Assembly: GCF_037042905.1 (NCBI RefSeq) | Contig: NC_087250.1 | Span: forward strand, 18,168,001-18,232,000 | From: Lytechinus pictus | Lineage: Eukaryota | Direction of reading: 5' to 3' | Length of the DNA stretch: 64,000 nucleotides | Shown: positions 29,260-53,100 of the stretch, piece by piece | Layout: the number at the start of each line of letters is the position of its first letter | Numbering within the stretch: the stretch's first letter is position 1 | Made by a program: the position numbers and the translations under genes | Notes under the pieces: generated by a model | What the model saw: the letters and a program-made list of their open reading frames with translations, nothing else | Databases searched by the model: none | Told to the model about the DNA's origin: nothing

Positions 29260-32200
29260 TTAAAGTTTTTGTAGAAGAAATGTTTTAAGTTTATATTTAA
29301 ATACATTAAGGGATAGAGAACTTTTGACATCTTCAGGGAGACTGTTCCAGAATACAGGACCATTATGAATTATTGACTTTCGGGATAATGATAATTTCCC
29401 ACATGATACACGGTAATCAGATTTTCTTCTAGTATCATAATTGTGAATATCAGAATTTTTACAAAATAAAGAATCAAAATTTATTGGAAGTAATTTCTTA
29501 TAGTATAAATACATAAAGATACCAAGATTGTAACTATATAATTCATACACAGGCAATATTTTAAACTTAAGAAAGAGTGGAGCAGTGTGAGCTCTGAAAC
29601 TAGAATAAGATATCATTCTGATTACTCTTTTTTGTAAAACTAAAGTTCTATCTAATAAATATTTATTTGAAGACCCCCAAACAATAATTCCATAATTGAG
29701 ATATGACAAAATTAAAGTGTTATAAAGCATTAAGAGAATATTTTGTGGGACAAATTCACGTAATCTATTTAAAACACCTATATTTCTAGAAATGAGGGAG
29801 TTTATTTTGTTAACATGACTTTTCCATTTTAAATTATCATCAATGTGAATTCCAAGAAATTTTACACTCTCCACCCTTTCTACTTCAGTATCATTAATAT
29901 ATAATTTAACAGGTTTTTTATCTACATTGTTTCTACTGATGATCATAAAATTTGTTTTCTGAATATTCAAAGCTAAATTATTAACAGAGAACCATTCCTG
30001 TACTTTATTAAGTTCAATATTCATATTTTGTTGTAAATAACCTATGTCACTGTGGCTAAAAAATATATTTGTGTCGTCAGCAAAAAGAACAAATTTTAAT
30101 AAATTAGAACAGAGATGAAGATCATTAACATATATAAGGAAAAGAAGAGGACCGAGGATTGAACCCTGCGGTACGCCTATTGATACTTTCTTGAACGAAG
30201 AATGACATGAATTATAAAGAACACATTGCTTTCTATTACTTAAATAATTGTGTATTAATTTAAGGGAAATACCTCGTATTCCATAAAAAGATAATTTACT
30301 AAGCAATATGTCATGGTTAATACAATCAAACGCCTTTTTTAGATCAATGAACACTCCAAACGTTATTTCGTTATTCTCATAAGCATTTATAATGTCATTT
30401 AAAGAATCTATCAGAGCATGAGATGTACAATGTTTTTCTCTAAAACCAAATTGTTTTTGATAAAGTATATGATTATTGTTAAAATATGTAATTAGCCTAG
30501 TATAAATACATTTCTCCAGCATTTTGGAGAAACATGATAATAAGGAAATTGGTCTATAATTTGAGAAAACATTTTTTGAACCAGATTTATATACAGGAAT
30601 AACTTGTGATATTTTACAACTATCAGGAAATATACCTTCTTGAATACATAAATTGAAAATAAAGCATAATGGTTTACATAAAATATGAATTGTCCTTTTT
30701 ACAACAACATTTTCAACGCCATCAATTCCTGGGGCTTTTCCATTCTGTAAACAATTTGCAATGTTAATAATTTCCTGTTCTGTAATTGGTATGAGAAATA
30801 AAGAACAAGGCAGGGTGTTTTTCAGGTAAAAACTATAATCAATATTACCTCTTGCAATGTTGTTAGTGATAGTATGTCCAATATTGGTAAAATATTCGTT
30901 AAATGCAAGTGCAATGTCATTTTCATTTCTGATTTCTATTTCATTATACCTAAAAACTAAGTTATTATCAGAGGTTTCAGGTTTCTGTTTGTTTAATAAA
31001 CAATTTATAACTTTCCATGTTTTGCAAAGATTGTTTTTTACTTTATTAAATTTAGAGTAATAAAATTCTTGTTCAGTTTTTCTAACAAGACTCACATATT
31101 TATTCTTAAAAGATTTATATTTTGCCTTTTTATTATCCGTAGGTTTCTTTATGAAGTTTGCATACAACCTGTTCTTCTTTCTATACATACGTTTGAGTGT
31201 AATATTAAACCAATCATTCTTTTGTTTTCGGCTTACTATTTCTTTTAATGGAAAACTAATTTCATATATTTCAAGAATAATTTTCATGAATTCATCATAG
31301 AGCAAGCTAGGGTCAGCAATATTGTGACTGTCATAAATACAAGAAAAGTCAAACTCTGATATTCTTTGTAAGAACCTAAGGATGCCATCTTCAGTAATTT
31401 GCCGTTTATGAAATTTTTTACTCGACTTCGTTGGCAACGAATAATCAAAAATAGAAAATATTGGATAATGATCAGAAACATCACAGATAACAGAACCATA
31501 ATAAAGGTTACATGAGTTATTAACAAAAATATTATCAATTAAAGTTGACGAAGTTTGAGTAATCCTGGTGGGTAGACTTATTAGTGGGGAAAAAGAAAAT
31601 GATGACATCATTTCAAGAAATTCATTAACATAATTCAATTGATCAATCTTTTTTATATCAATATTGTAATCACCCAAAAATATACAATGTTTCTGCTCAC
31701 CATTAACCTTTTCAACAATATTGGTAAGAACATTAATAAATTCATTGATTGATTTTTCAGGGGGTCTATAAAATACTCCAATTATGAGGTTTCTACCCAG
31801 GTTAGGAATTTCAATAAAGCAACTTTCACATGTATCACAAAAAATATTAAGATCACATCTGTTTACAAAATCAATACTATTTTTTATACCAAAGCCAACA
31901 CCACCGCCATGTCTTTTATGACGGCCTAATCCGACATATCTATAATCTTTAAAAATATATTCTGGTGCAGTGTTCTCTTTTATCCAGGTTTCAGAAAAAG
32001 CAATTCTCGCTACCCCAAATAGCGATTTCGCCGAGATCCGGGAAAATCCCTGTAACGCGCATTGCATTATGGGATAGCTTTTTCGGTATTACAACTTCCT
32101 GTTCGGAAGTACAATGCACTGTTTTGCCATTCAGTTCAACAGTGCCGTCATGCACAACAACACAACGTCGCTTTCGCTCGGAAAGTTCGTCATCACAACC

Positions 32201-33170: not shown

Positions 33171-33900
33171 TCATCTATGCCTGGGCAAGTTGGAGAGGTC
33201 ACTGTCACTTGATATGAGTTTTGTCACTTTCTTTCCATTTTGAGCTTTGATCAGAGCAATGACTTTTCCATCTGTTGTCCATGCTTGTTCTACAGCTTCA
33301 CATCTAAAAGTTGCTTTCAAGAGATCAAGTTTGCTTTTGATGAGGTCCTCCATGATGCTCATTCCTGTGTTTTTCAGTAGTTTTTTATTCTTCATAAGCA
33401 CTTGTCGCGATCGATAGCTCGTGAACTTCACGAGAATGGGACGTGCATGAGCCTTCTTCCTGTCAGGAGGCTTGTTTGTAGACTTCTGCTGTTGTTGAGT
33501 CTCCTCTTGGACTGATGGGGGTTTACCAGTACGATGAGACCGATCTATTTCATTTATGGATAGAGGTATACCCATACGCTTTGCAACATCAAGAACAAGC
33601 TGGTCTGTGTTTTCTCCTTTGTTTTCTTTGATGCCAAATATCCTTAGACTGTTTCGGCGACTATATTGATGAAGTTCCTCATATTTCATTTGATTTGCTA
33701 CAGCTTGATCACTTGTTGACTTGAGTTTTTTCTTGAGACTCACAATTTCTTCATCCTTCTTTTGGAGCTTTGATTCTAACTCCAGAATTTTGCCTTCATT
33801 TTCATCTATCCTCTCTTGCAGTTGAACCAGCTTATTAGAGATTGATTCAGAGACGATGTTTTCAATAAAGTTCAGGAATTTTCTGTCACTAATGATGCCA
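33171..33900 (-). CDS. LINE ORF1 (coiled coil + L1/Tnp22-like RRM), 5'-truncated
   Basis: EELHQYSRRNSLRIFGI, IDRSHR.G, RPILVKF, I.EDL; upstream heptad-rich stretch. Confidence 0.88.
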
Positions 33901-35498
33901 TAATTTGTAATTGCTTAAACTTTTAAACAACTTGCTTAAAACGTTTAAACAGTTGTTTAAAAAGCTTAAACAGTTGCTTAAAAACAATAGTCGTTAGACT
34001 GAAGGGCTTAAAACAACTTGTATATAGTGTAATACATTAGCGTTGTACATATCCATAAACAATGATCCATTGCTTAATTCGTTTCAAGTTATTTGATGCA
34101 TGCACGTTCATTGGATATACAGGCGTAAAAAGAACCCAGTAGGATCATGTTGATAGTTTTAGTATAGAAAGCCATTCACCTTTCTTCTATGGAATACCGA
34201 CTATTTACATTTGAAATCTTCTATCCACCGTAACCGAATATTTCATATATTTTCAATGACTACATTTTCATTGGATATTGTAAATAGCTTTTTGTACGAG
34301 ATGGTTTATATGAGAAAAGTGCTTACCGACCTGTTGTTCTTGTGTTAATATATAATTCAAATATTGATATATCTACGAATTGAACAGAAATATACGATGC
34401 ATAAGTAATAGCAACACCTACCATTTTTACGATAGATTTAATACGTAGGTGGTTCTGCACGTGCTTATATAATTTCTAGAATTGATAATTCCGAAACCCA
34501 GTATTGCGTGAAATAGGCATTCAGAATTATAAACATGTTTCAAGATATTCACACATTGCAGGCTCAGATCTCGGGCGGTGGGGTGGGGGGGGGGGGAAAG
34601 AATCAATGACCTTATAATTAGGTGACAACCTTGTCAATTTCTCAACGGGTTAGCCTTTGGAAATTTGACAAGCAAAAACAAAAAAAAGAAGAAAAAGAAA
34701 ATCTGGTTATCGTCCCTAATTTTTTAAGGTCATTTTGACAAAAATAAATTTGACAAGCAAGGTCATCTCATCCTAATTACATGCTTTATTTCGATTTTGA
34801 AAGATTTGTATTTTTCCATCATAAAATACCAAACATAGTAGGGGACATTTGAAATTATGTCCCCCAACTATTTTGGGTAGGGGGACGCGTCTCCCCCCCC
34901 CCCTGTCCCCCTGAGATTTTCGCCCATGAACATGTAAAATGTGCCACCCCTTTTTAAAAATCCTGGATCCTGAAGCACCCCGTAAAATTTCAACTCTGGA
35001 TCCGCGCCTGCATTGCGTAAAATGTTTACAGTGTTCAACGACACACAAATGAAAACGGGTCCCCGTTATTTACAAAATGAATAATATTCATTTAAAATAC
35101 ACATTGCGGAATGAGTCTGTTTGTGTCAAAGAGAGACAGAGAGGGGGCAGGGGATTTATATTATCTTTCTCTGACTGGAGGAATACAAAAACATATCAAA
35201 TTGAGAACTAAAACCTAAATACATAGGCCTATAACAGCGCAGTAAATGATCACTTTATATTTCCATTTCCATTTCTGCACTGTTAACTTTTAAAATACGT
35301 GTATAGAAAATGTAGACAAACTAAAATGTTACAAAACGAGAAACCAGAAAAAAGACTGGCTTAATCATGTCCATACAATTTACGTACAATTTTGCCAGTG
35401 TTTTTTTCCCGTCAATACAATATCATAAAAATATGATACACATTAATAAATTTGCAGTGGTCATTTCTCTGACCATATACTAGTAGTGTATTCAATAT

Positions 35499-35805
35499 TC
35501 AGGTGATTTCAAGGGAGAAGAATCTATCCCTTAGATCCAATAATTTGGCATCGGTGAGGGCTCCCTTCAGCCTGTCATGTTGCTCTACAACTGCCGTTTC
35601 GGCTCTCCAGTCCATTAGCATTCTGTGGGTTCCTCTGGCGGTAACCTGGCCTTCTAGTCTGTTGAGATCGTGACACCGTTGCTGGGCCCCTGAGGCGACT
35701 TTCAGAGCTTGCATCAGCCTATCAAGATGGTCATCGTTTTCGATTTCGTTGGCGAGATCGTAGAGAACCTTGTCATCCAGCCTTTTTGAACAGGTTGATG
35801 ACGAC
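35499..35805 (-). CDS. Terminal exon encoding a death domain
   Basis: [13 protein letters not shown]...[10 protein letters not shown]...[10 protein letters not shown]...[18 protein letters not shown]; helical death-fold pattern (ML.DW, L..AL); acceptor cacaag. Confidence 0.85.
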
Positions 35806-35973
35806 CTTGTGTGAACATTGAATAGAGCGGGGGGGGAAAATGCAAAAAAAATGTTCCACTTTTTTTATCACGATTATAAAAACACCATACGAGATAGTTT
35901 ACAATGTGAATGTATGCTTGTGCTAGTGTGTTTGTTATGGTTAGGTGTGTGAGGGTTTGTGTCCGTTTGTAAG

Positions 35974-36041
<68 letters not shown>

Positions 36042-36046
36042 ATCTT

Positions 36047-36092
<46 letters not shown>

Positions 36093-38129
36093 TCATACCT
36101 TGGTCAGTTCGGTCTACTACCATCGGTTTCACGCTTTCGGCGATCTTCAGGCAGACTGATGATTTGAGTTGGTTGTGTCTGTGTGCTGCGATGGGTCGTC
36201 ACACCTGATTGGTTTTCTGGGGGGTCTTTGCCGATGTCTGTGGCGGCACTTTGAGATTATTTATGACCTTTTGTTGAGGCACTATTTGTTGTTGGTGATA
36301 ATTATATACTTCTCTTCTAGGCAGAGATTGCAGAGCCCACTCTTTTTTAGGTTAGTGTTCGACTTCTTCTCTATCCCCCACGTTAATTCAAATTTGGTGT
36401 TTGCTTCCTTTAGTTTCCATATATAATTAGAGAGTTGAGTTTCATTTTTGTATTATTCATGCTTCATTGGTTTGATGTGATTCCTGTATCTGTCCTTGAA
36501 AGTACCCCCCCCCCCCCCGCAAGACCATAATAGCATTTTTCCTCGTTTTCGTGTCGGATGTTGGCTTTGTAGACGAGGGCCGTTTCTAAACATCTTCCTT
36601 GCAGTGGGCACTGCGTTTTCATACGACAGTTACATTTCCGCCTCGGCTCCTCCTCTTTAGTCTTGGCTTGTGTGATGACTCTCTGGTTGTGTGATTTCAT
36701 TACTGCATCCTGTTTCTCATGCAGCTGTAGCTTACTTTAAATGTATTTTTATTAAACATTTGGTGCAGTTTGTTACCCTTCGGGAAGTGTTTGTTTATTA
36801 ACTTCAGGAATTTGCCACCCACGTTTGTCTTGACCTCTGCGTTGTAGGGGGGATTGAACCACGTGATTTTCCTTTTCCTATTTACTCTGCTTCGACTAGG
36901 CCCCCTTCTCTTCGTTTGCATTTGTGTTTTTCATACTGAATTTTCGTATCAAAGCCGCTATTTTTCAGGACTTTGTCGTATGGGGGCGCTGCTTCTTTAA
37001 AGATGCATTCATTTGACGATAGACTCGATATTCTTTTTTCTACAGCTAATGGTATCTTCTTGAGTATAGGAGGGGTTGGTTTGAGTTCTTGTGTATGTAT
37101 AGGGGCATGTTGTTTGGTTTCCTGTAGGGCTGGAATGTACTGTTGTTGAGGTCAAGGGTTACGCCCAGGTAGTCGACGGTCTTAAGGTTGGTCTGGACCG
37201 TAATGCGTAAGCCCATCTGGTTGAATAAATTAATTAGGTCTTTCCGTGACCTATCGGCTCTACTGCCCGAGGCTCTCCCGAGTACGACGAGGCCGTCATC
37301 CCGATAAAGGCCTACACTGTGGGTTTTATTTTTTTTTCATTTTTGTCAGCGCGTAGAGCGCTACGAGTTCGCATACCTCGGCTCCATTGTGCGCCCCCAT
37401 CATCTATTCATCATCTTCATCTATTTCGAGAACATTCGTGTCTTGCATGGCCGAATGCAGACCTTTTGGGGTTTTTGAAGGGGGGTGGGGCAAGTTTCAT
37501 AAAATTTTGCCTGGAATAAAAATGGAGCAAAGTGACCAAGCTTGTCATGGATTAAAAAAAATGAAATTGAATATTTATTTAGTACACACGTTAGTGTTTT
37601 TTTCTTTTAAATACTTCTTAATATTTCCTTTAACGTAGATACGGCTATATAATCTAGAAAATAGGGCTTACATACTACATACTTTTGCATACGTCATCAA
37701 ACGAATTACAACTAGAAACATTTAAGCAAAAAAAAGTAAGTGAATATGATTATCGACATGACGTTTATATGATGTTTTTTTACATCATATTCAGTATTAA
37801 TTCATCAAAGTAAAACCCGAAATACAATTTCATAAAGATAAATTATCGTTAATCTGTGTCAAAATAATTAAGCAACATTGTATTTGTTCTCGAAGTGTTT
37901 CACGCACTACTTCTAGGTCCAGGAGATACAATGTACATTATGGATGAGTTGATTTAAGTAGAATGAAAATAGAGGTTATTTTATTAAGTTTCATATTTTA
38001 CAATATTAATACTTACGCGTCAGTTATGTCACCTGCAACATAAAAAATACAATGAATGAAATGATAATAATAGAAAGCAGTTAAGAGACGCTGATCACTA
38101 CGACTTTAGTTCCAGTGTAATAATTATAT

Positions 38130-50100: not shown

Positions 50101-53100
50101 TTATGAAACACCCACCAGAGGTCATAGGGGCAGATTTAGAATGGTAACAGAGTTTTTGGTTCAGAATAATGTTAAAGTAATGATTAGGGTTACTTTATTT
50201 AGTTTTGGAGGTTAGAATCTATAATTGGCTCAACGTGCCTATTTTCCATCGGATCAATTATCGCAAGAGCAAATGTCATGGAACATAATCACCCAGCCTA
50301 CCTTCATCGTGATTTTGCATTCCTTTCGTAAAGCAAGGGCTGGGATAAAGAGACTAATACCATGAGCAGGTAGCACAATTGTACCTCCTCGAGATGGATG
50401 GATCATTTGACTAGACATGTCTGGATCTGATAATAAAAGGAATAATTAATGGCCTGTTCATGATCAAGGTTTGTTATTCAATTTACCTTTAATTTCAAGG
50501 ATATTTCTGGAATAAAAACAAAATATTTTCTTTTTTTGACAAAAGACAAAAGTTTTGACACATGTAGGTTGAAATCAATAAGGTATAGCATATTGTACAG
50601 TAAAACCCAACACAAAAGCAACAATTATCACATAGCATAAGATGAACGATTACAGAACATTGACCATACGACACGACGTCAGCGACCACAATAAAAGAAA
50701 ATAGCATTTAAAAATCCGCTAATATATAAACTACAAAGTTTTAGAATCAATAGGATTCATAAGTAGTCAGACACATGAATTATGCAAAAAAACCAATGTT
50801 AAATTCAGAATATTGATTTCCAGATCGTTAAAAATTATTAAGAATAGGAATGAATGGAAGGTGAGGCAGAAGGTGGAGTTGATAGGAATATGGGAAAAAG
50901 ATAAAGGAAATGCATTGAGAGATTCAATATAAAATTACATAAGAGGTAAATAATTATGATAAATGTATAGAAAGAACAACGAGAGCAAGAAGAAGAATAC
51001 GAACGAAAGGAGAAGAAGTGGAAGGGCAAGAAGAATCAAAAGTGGAAGGGCAAGAAGAATCAAAAGTGGAAGAACAATACCATATTAAACGAGAGGAAAC
51101 AAGTAATTGAATGAAAAGACAGCTATAATGGGAAAAAAATAAAAAGTAAATATACATATAGTTAGAGTGTAAGAACAACCCTCTTGTTCCTAAAGTTGAC
51201 AAGTGGAATGTTTTTCCATGACCGGTCAGTCAGTCAATAATTTATATATTAACGTGCAGTCATGTGCGACGACTTCGGCGACGAGTTCGTGTTTCATATT
51301 TCTGGAATGCTCTTACCTCTATTAGACTGTACATCATCAAAGGAAGGTAATCTGCAGTAAGCAATTAATACAAAATTATTTAACTTCTAATATCTTGAAT
51401 TATATTTACCACATCAACTGCATTAAAATCATTTAGAATATTTAAAAGAAAACCTAATTTTTTGATGGACTTCTGATGATAATACATAAGTGAAAAGTAT
51501 TCACAAATTGTGTGCCATTTTAAATTGCAAACTATGTTTTTTTTAAGCTACTCGAACTAATTAAACCCAGAGAATATTGAAAGGACAATTCCATCACAAC
51601 AGAAAATTGGTTTGAATGATAACATATACTCCACACTAGCATAACACTGAATATTTAATCAAAATCGGGATTGAAATAAGGTTTTTTCTTTTAAATTTTC
51701 GCTCGATTAAAAAATAACATTTGTACAATATGCACATACTGGTCGGTATGCAAAAGAGTGGACAGATGATGTCACCCAATTGCTGTTTCCTTTGTATTTC
51801 ACTATACAGTGCGTCCCAGAAAAAACGAAACCGAGATTTAGCGATGATTTATCATAACTTAATCATAAATAAAATAGACAAATGACCTACCAATGTAAAG
51901 CTTAGAATCTCCTCTTTCATCTGGTATTACTTAGATTATTCCTCATTCACGCATGATTGAGCAAAAACAATTCGAAGAAAGGATGCCAAAAACTCATTTG
52001 GCGGGGGTATCTGAATTTCAAAAAGAAAATCACATGACTAAAAAGTTCAATATCTTCTCTTTTCTTTGATACCTAAATCACAAAAAATGGTCAAGTAGTA
52101 AAAAAGTTATGATCCCTCGAAACAATGCTTGTAATTCCATAATTTCATTAAAGTTGAATTAAGAAGGGGGAGAGTTTCCATAAATATAGGTTCTACATAC
52201 AATATATAGTATATATAAGTTGTTCAAACACATAGCATGTCACAATAATCCTCTGCCTTCTCGATATTTTGCTTTGAAAGTCTATGAAATTAGCCACCTG
52301 TCAGAGCCCGAGAGACGAGTGTACAGAAAAGTCACTCGGAGTGTGACGTCACCGGGGGGAATTTAGTATAAGAGGTGCCTGAATGTCATACAGAAATGCT
52401 ATGCAGAGAGAGAAAGATATTTTACAATTTTTTTTCAAAGCAACTCAAATCAAACAAATAGGACTGATATGTACAAATCTTTACTTTCCCTGTATAAAAA
52501 ACAGTATGAATAACCACCATGAACTCTTCAATCATGATGTAAGATAGCAAACAGTGAGTTATTGAATGATATTTTCACTATTTCTCATTTATTTATTACG
52601 ATGTTCAATCAAGTGAGTAGCTGGAAAGTAATTCTGGCGGCTAGCTCAGCGCGCGCTGAACGCATAATACTAGTACACACAACACCCAGGCATTGAGTGT
52701 ACTGTTATGGTCTGGTATGTCGACTTAGTTCATGGCCGTGCAGCGATCCCCTGGCGTTTTTTCTTCTTTTCTTTTGTCTTTGACTCCACTTTTATATCCT
52801 CTGGATCATTTCCACTCACAGCTCATTCCACAGAACAATCTTGAACCAAACGTATAGTATTCTTTCTCGGCCTTCTGAGTTGTTTTCTATATTTAATTAC
52901 GCTAGGGGTCACCGTCACACATACAAACGCAATTCGGAAGTGAGTTGAAGACAGAAAGATATATAGTAATTAGTATACATCTCTATGGTTGAAGACAACA
53001 AGAACGGTACGGTAGCTCGACAGCTAGCTGCGCCGGAGCGGGCGGCCGGTCGGCACAAAGCAATTCCGCAACCAACTGTGTTTTTTTGCAAGAGCCGCGT

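Follow-up and report, generated by a model that had tools for sequence, protein, structure and literature searches.

The hammerhead ribozyme motif on the minus strand at 36112–36156 of the window, the 64,000-nt stretch of Lytechinus pictus DNA analysed here, is most likely the usual tail of a dead Hydra-clade Penelope insertion, an inert passenger that is discarded together with the last intron of its host gene (probability about 0.8). The host gene, the Penelope element and the hammerhead motif all lie on the minus strand. According to this explanation, a Hydra-clade Penelope-like element (PLE) would have entered a (TA)n tract of the last intron after the gene had been duplicated, and only the last 1.3 kb of the element would have been copied, ending in the standard hammerhead of the clade. 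In the element from which it came, cleavage was probably carried out by two copies paired within a tandem transcript, or was aided by the element protein. The window ribozyme stands alone, one change weakens its palindrome, and misfolding in its flanks is predicted. Transcribed with the host intron, it would seldom if ever cut during the seconds to minutes that precede splicing and would leave with the intron, and its decay appears to keep pace with that of the other parts of the dead element.

The hammerhead motif and its family

Reading of the sequence from 36156 to 36112 on the minus strand gave a complete type I hammerhead layout of the Hydra-clade form (U, stem II, U-GAAA and a palindromic stem III). 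Stem I is formed by GUCUGC (36156–36151) and GUAGAC (36117–36112), six pairs including one G·U. The core box CUGAAGA (36144–36150) is intact, each of its positions agreeing in 48–50 of 50 family copies, and is followed by stem II, CGC/GCG with the loop CGAAA (36142–36132), which lies between U36143 and U36131 (U·U; 36131–36143). GAAA occupies 36130–36127, and stem III is ACC/GGU, three pairs with the loop GAU, a palindrome (36119–36127). Hammerhead numbering applied to the sequence puts the predicted cleavage site after GUA, where A17 is 36118, that is, at 36118/36117. The motif, its coordinates, its sense orientation and this cut had all been given correctly by a first-pass annotation, and the distance of about 310 nt that it gave from the ribozyme to the last exon agrees with the 311 nt between the predicted cut and the start of the last coding exon (35805), as placed by exon tiling of the public predicted protein P0004. 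CUGANGA, GAAA and the NUH triplet are present in order, and the three helices have 6, 3 and 3 pairs, with stem I open-ended. The pair expected at positions 10.1–11.1 at the base of stem II, usually G-C, is not formed; U·U stands there in the window motif and family-wide.

Taken alone, the motif is weak sequence evidence. The Rfam hammerhead models, the search that the first-pass annotation had proposed as a check, gave no match at gathering score in the whole window, and no hammerhead was among the 17 Rfam matches at E ≤ 10 within 35800–36500. A loose core pattern had three matches in the window, two of them being this motif, vs 0.79 expected, and 7 of 100 shuffles reached three. The fold of the 45-mer motif was no better than that of shuffles (z = −0.87). 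A relaxed structural scan of both window strands returned 36156–36112 as the sole hammerhead. The motif is lifted above chance by its family of copies and by covariation across sister families. A 34-nt form of it had at least 51 matches at up to three mismatches in the 812-Mb genome, vs none for the reversed control. Among eight hand-picked copies of four families, 92.3% of cells were paired, a value reached by 2 of 500 shuffles in a test that is inflated by the relatedness of the copies, and a G-C pair of the palindrome is swapped to C-G. The identification as a Penelope type I hammerhead, likewise made in the first-pass annotation, is right.

The U·U at the base of stem II was first suspected to be a new variant because the consensus for minimal PLE hammerheads published in 2014 has G-C at 10.1–11.1 (Cervera and de la Peña, 2014, PMC4209133). 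An undescribed core variant was rejected on the basis of File S2 of Craig et al. (2021, PMC8557442), in which 14 of 26 Hydra-clade rows have the U·U layout, including sea cucumber elements with a CGC-starting stem II, and of the axolotl hammerhead described by Cervera and de la Peña (2020, PMC7229834). Damage private to the window copy was also rejected, as the U·U is shared by sister families and by 47–48 of 50 sister copies: in an alignment of 50 motif-covering copies, taken from 48 loci picked by motif likeness so that conservation is inflated, U36143 was present in 47 and U36131 in 48. A looser pattern with the second U fixed and the first position free had 61 matches in several families, with U at the free position in 58 of the matches. 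The sequences and File S2 indicate that U·U is the normal form of the Hydra clade, already in print. The suggestion that it may weaken activity can be kept in part: it may well slow cleavage, as the axolotl precedent indicates (PMC7229834), but it is the usual form of the clade and not a peculiarity of the window copy. No rate for hammerheads with U·U at 10.1/11.1 was found in the literature searched on those positions.

The nearest published relatives in File S2 are Hydra-1/2_aJap from a sea cucumber and Penelope-9/16_HM (PMC8557442). Like the Hydra-clade hammerheads of that file, the window motif has CUGANGA, U, a short CGC-starting stem II and U-GAAA, as well as a stem III palindrome in which four pairs surround a single central base. 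Unlike those rows, the window copy has C changed to U in the palindrome, is part of a dead fragment and lacks a 3′ tail found in many of its sister copies. The sea urchin family to which the window hammerhead belongs is absent from the file, although the hammerhead form itself is known, and the literature searched for sea urchin or Lytechinus together with Penelope and hammerhead ribozyme held no matching paper. The minimal metazoan PLE hammerheads, as far as the available text of PMC4209133 describes them, are similar in being of type I, in lying in the terminal repeat of the element, in having an extra base after the first core box and a palindromic helix III suited to dimers, and in occurring mostly as lone truncated copies. 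In their consensus G10.1-C11.1 is present and helix III is minimal or absent, whereas the window copy has U·U and a helix III of 3 bp.

Two further features of the family were observed. Four of the 50 copies (L008, L016, L031 and L045) have duplications of 5–10 nt inside the stem III palindrome, at the site matching 36126–36123. Such duplications could lengthen the intramolecular stem III and mimic the dimer helix; the core of L008 is broken. In addition, the genome holds two or more other hammerhead families in which stem II has the usual G-C at its base, with 56 matches vs 20 for the control.

The Penelope-like element and its insertion site

The motif lies in a 5′-truncated element at 36090–37400 (minus strand), which comprises the end of a reverse transcriptase (RT), a CxCx5C linker, a GIY-YIG-type endonuclease and a 3′ end, interrupted by frameshifts and stops. 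Comparison with P0010, the open reading frame of a sister family, showed that the element aligns in five pieces and three frames, four of the pieces at 62–79% identity, with three stops in the endonuclease piece, and that the order of RT followed by a C-terminal GIY-YIG-type endonuclease is kept. Comparison with the sister copy L056 showed 68% DNA identity over 1309 nt, and homology to the sister copies spans 37400 to about 36090. Neither an RT nor an endonuclease domain was named in the element by Pfam; both labels are presumed from motif reading. The CxCx5C linker and the endonuclease CxxC and CxH motifs are found in the window element and in P0010. RWR and DKT are present towards the N-terminus of P0010, and the RWK/DKT region has been lost from the window copy by 5′ truncation. 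The element is inserted in (TA)n and bears its hammerhead near the 3′ end. The CxCx5C, CxxC and CxH motifs and the (TA)n target are given as marks of the Hydra clade, and a hammerhead near the 3′ end is likewise found in its elements, in the available part of PMC8557442. By its sequence marks, the window element is a Hydra-clade Penelope-like element. The approximately 80 nt at its 5′ junction (37401–37480, minus strand) resemble neither the sister copies nor the paralogue of the host gene. No intact master copy of the window family was found among at least 11 matches to the RT part.

The sister Hydra-clade family has near-identical copies and an open frame of 736 aa (P0010; L056, 2015–4225). 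At another locus, L055, two hammerheads lie on the same strand 3.95 kb apart (2261 and 6212). With its near-identical copies, its open frame and its double-hammerhead locus, the sister family looks recently active.

The target site is a (TA)n microsatellite at 35975–36090. A paralogous gene, whose last exon is 95% identical, lies 1.4 Mb away and aligns on both sides of the site at 75–89%; in it the TA tract is present and the element is absent, implying that the insertion took place after the duplication or is confined to the window copy. One contig from a DNA run (X1) spans the 5′ junction (37280–38102) with 34 differing letters. The insertion is thus also present on a second, about 4% divergent haplotype, which may belong to a different animal, to a sister species or, as the alternative haplotype, to the same animal. 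No allele free of the element was observed. Because the 5′ junction is found on this second haplotype too, the insertion is not brand new.

Compared with the paralogue, about 430 nt are absent from the host gene near 37613–37621 (L021, 7482–7909), and with them an 81-nt exon (L021, 7663–7743). This exon is also contained in a Lytechinus variegatus protein (P0007) and is absent from P0001 and P0004; the frame is kept. The element was considered as the cause of the missing exon and rejected, as the deletion lies about 140–210 nt from the element's 5′ terminus with paralogue-like DNA between them. From the sequence, the exon deletion looks separate from the element insertion.

The host gene

The host gene (35499–59410, minus strand) has 11 coding exons and encodes a protein of 796 aa with ankyrin repeats, a ZU5 domain, a UPA-like region and a death-fold domain. 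P0004, whose source label is ankyrin-1-like of Lytechinus pictus, is this protein of 796 aa and corresponds to the window sequence without a mismatch over 11 exons, which run from 59410 to 35502. Ankyrin repeats and ZU5 were found in P0004 by Pfam, and the UPA-like region is presumed from the usual architecture. Exact tiling of P0004 places the last intron, GT...AG, at 35806–38016; it is preceded by a 16-nt microexon (38017–38032) that is identical in the paralogue and followed by the last coding exon (35499–35805), which encodes the death-fold domain and ends in a stop codon.

The label 'death-domain exon' in the first-pass annotation is backed only indirectly. The last exon itself was left unnamed by the Pfam and PDB sequence searches, but PF00531 matched 14 of 16 paralogous exons tested at E ≤ 0.1, six of them above the curated cut-off, the 16 being part of 26 matches to the death-fold exon, and the Atlas model of the last exon gave TM values of 0.65–0.86 vs death-domain proteins. 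Of those 26 matches, 16 lie on the window's own contig, a local expansion. The host gene looks chimeric: DNA likeness to the paralogue begins near 50535, just before the ZU5 exons (50535–33906 vs L021, L022 and L024), and in the paralogue P0002 a hydrophobic, membrane-like N-terminus takes the place of the ankyrin repeats. Just downstream of the gene, also on the minus strand, lie an open frame of 942 aa and, before it, a frame of 247 aa (29260–32088 and 33171–33914); the 942-aa frame has what we take to be endonuclease and RT features and presumably belongs to a LINE-type element with an intact second frame.

Possible cleavage by the window copy and the host transcript

The window copy departs from the family majority at one of 45 motif positions, having U36122 in place of the C seen in 44 of 50 copies; a short deletion near 36168, outside the motif, likewise sets it apart. 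This change turns two G-C pairs of the dimer helix into G·U and leaves the monomer stem III unaffected; the dimer duplex was calculated at −8.8 kcal/mol for the window copy vs −11.9 for the copy L017. The relaxed scan detected no second hammerhead on either window strand, nor on the sense strand over a further 20 kb upstream. On its contig, 7.86 Mb separates the window copy from the nearest other member of the family, and among the 51 family copies no same-strand pair lies within 30 kb, all seven close pairs being inverted. Neither the scan nor this spacing revealed a dimer partner within the transcript. The earlier view that the short stem III often requires a dimer holds in that this stem III suits one, but the window copy is alone and its palindrome is weakened. 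In the folding predictions the hammerhead structure took up about 1% of the ensemble when isolated and about 0.01% within 111–171 nt of context; these values are understated, as ViennaRNA omits the tertiary contacts of the core, and are much alike for an unmutated copy.

Published relatives, within the portions of the papers available, are slow or partner-dependent. A single minimal PLE hammerhead showed no detectable cleavage, and dimers showed only little (PMC4209133). A PLE hammerhead of the anole stayed uncut without the element protein, and no RNA-seq read ends were found at its site (PMC11167929). The axolotl retrozyme hammerhead HHR_Amex2 resembles the window motif in being of type I with U·U at the base of helix II and a short helix III; it cleaves slowly alone (22% in 1 h) and much more as a dimer, and its tandem repeats give it a partner and circular RNAs, whereas the window copy is single and dispersed (PMC7229834). 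No cleavage test of any Hydra-clade hammerhead was found in the literature searched. With the axolotl rate (about 0.009 per min) borrowed and a polymerase speed of 1–4 kb/min assumed, the share of transcripts cut would be 0.07–0.3% by the time the acceptor is made, 4% after 5 min and 8% after 10 min. Since related ribozymes are slow or partner-dependent, less than 1% cleavage is to be expected within the seconds preceding formation of the 3′ splice site. Slow intronic ribozymes were reportedly without effect on splicing in work by Fong in 2009, as cited in PMC10919898.

An unlikely alternative is that slow cleavage as a monomer, or cleavage aided by a protein or chaperone, removes a measurable part of the pre-mRNA from a late-spliced last intron, making the insertion a mild, unselected down-allele. 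This would be favoured by the intact core, the 3-bp stem III, a stem I that in folding can possibly be extended beyond a bulge, the ability of U·U hammerheads to cleave (PMC7229834), the protein-assisted cutting known for another PLE (PMC11167929) and an endogenous intronic ribozyme that tunes CPEB3 (PMC10919898); at an assumed 0.1 per min, the share cut would reach 39% in 5 min. It is opposed by the absence of a partner copy, the weakened palindrome, the competing folds in context and the lack of piled read ends at the site in any family copy in three RNA runs of low depth, and also by the distance to the splice site, 311 nt vs 9931 nt for CPEB3, whose ribozyme has a half-life of 2–3 min (PMC10919898). 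The inert passenger reading has points against it as well: the core is fully intact, and stem III (two G-C and one A-U with a 3-nt loop) is stronger than in the minimal motifs that failed as monomers; late splicing of last introns can widen the cleavage window; and the open 736-aa frame of the sister family might in principle supply protein.

The motif has one substitution in 45 positions, compared with 32 in 762 elsewhere in the element after 12 indel columns were dropped (P(≤1) = 0.43, at low power). The sequence comparison thus gives no sign that the host preserves the motif, and its one change goes in the damaging direction. A regulator kept by the host, yielding death-domain-less forms or tuning output, is extremely improbable. 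Its sense orientation just ahead of the last coding exon and the presence of the 5′ junction on a second, divergent haplotype would suit such a role, which is contradicted by the lack of excess conservation, by a change that harms the dimer helix, by a paralogue that manages without the insertion and by the fact that cleavage yields no poly(A) site. None of eight named protein records of the gene and its paralogue is an ankyrin-ZU5 form ending at the last intron; P0008 does end after the microexon, but it is of the paralogue type and element-free. The model behind the first-pass annotation has a counterpart in the CPEB3 ribozyme, a self-cleaving motif in the sense strand of an intron upstream of an exon. 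That ribozyme is HDV-like, conserved and active alone, lies about 10 kb before its exon and has a demonstrated effect on mRNA, in the part of PMC10919898 available, whereas the window motif showed no conservation above its neutral flanks and is absent from the paralogue.

RNA reads matching 36093–38110, a stretch that excludes the last exon, numbered 51 in three runs (5, 9 and 37, with about 6, 6 and 25 in 100 of the respective run read). None of the 51 reached 99% likeness; they derive from other copies, none lies in the unique intron, and they show no joints and no piled ends. For 34600–35960, no RNA run was listed as containing the stretch, a result that is uninformative about expression. 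The predicted model P0004 joins the exons flanking the last intron. The proposal that cleavage severs the pre-mRNA or gives rise to death-domain-less forms is disfavoured by a lone copy with a weakened palindrome, no sign of selection, a predicted model that splices across, and published relatives that are slow or inactive alone (PMC4209133; PMC7229834; PMC11167929). A cut would leave a 5′ piece of pre-mRNA lacking a poly(A) tail, and such pieces are degraded and not translated.

As it most likely stands, the motif is of little import, another dead Penelope tail lodged in an intron. Were it to cleave in vivo, passenger ribozymes of retrotransposons could tax host genes; the same question has been raised for retrozymes, which are depleted from introns in Xenopus according to the available text of a preprint (bioRxiv 10.64898/2026.07.22.740005). 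It would be a long shot that Hydra-clade U·U hammerheads whose stem III has 3 bp work as monomers, or are trans-activated by the protein of the open sister family, and that sense insertions cut host pre-mRNA when the retrotransposon is expressed. If that were true, the insertion would be a natural allele lowering a death-fold adaptor and could be compared with the insertion-free paralogue. A Hydra-clade hammerhead with an intact core and a paralogue free of the insertion make a clean pair for the first biochemistry on the U·U form of the clade.

It is very unlikely that the insertion acts, if at all, through splicing signals. Just past the ribozyme lies AAG/GUAUGA (36101–36093, minus strand), a 5′-splice-site-like word common to sister families and 292 nt before the true acceptor, which could lead to occasional exonisation of the element, and this region holds an intron in other PLEs (PMC8557442). 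At 36099/36098 the three RNA runs, at low depth and from other copies only, showed neither a joint nor a loose end, and the public model uses the upstream donor. In four families (L055–L066), AG/GUA is found about equally far behind the ribozyme; the one in L055 precedes the likely start codon by about 140 nt, at the place of a 5′ intron in other Penelope-like elements.
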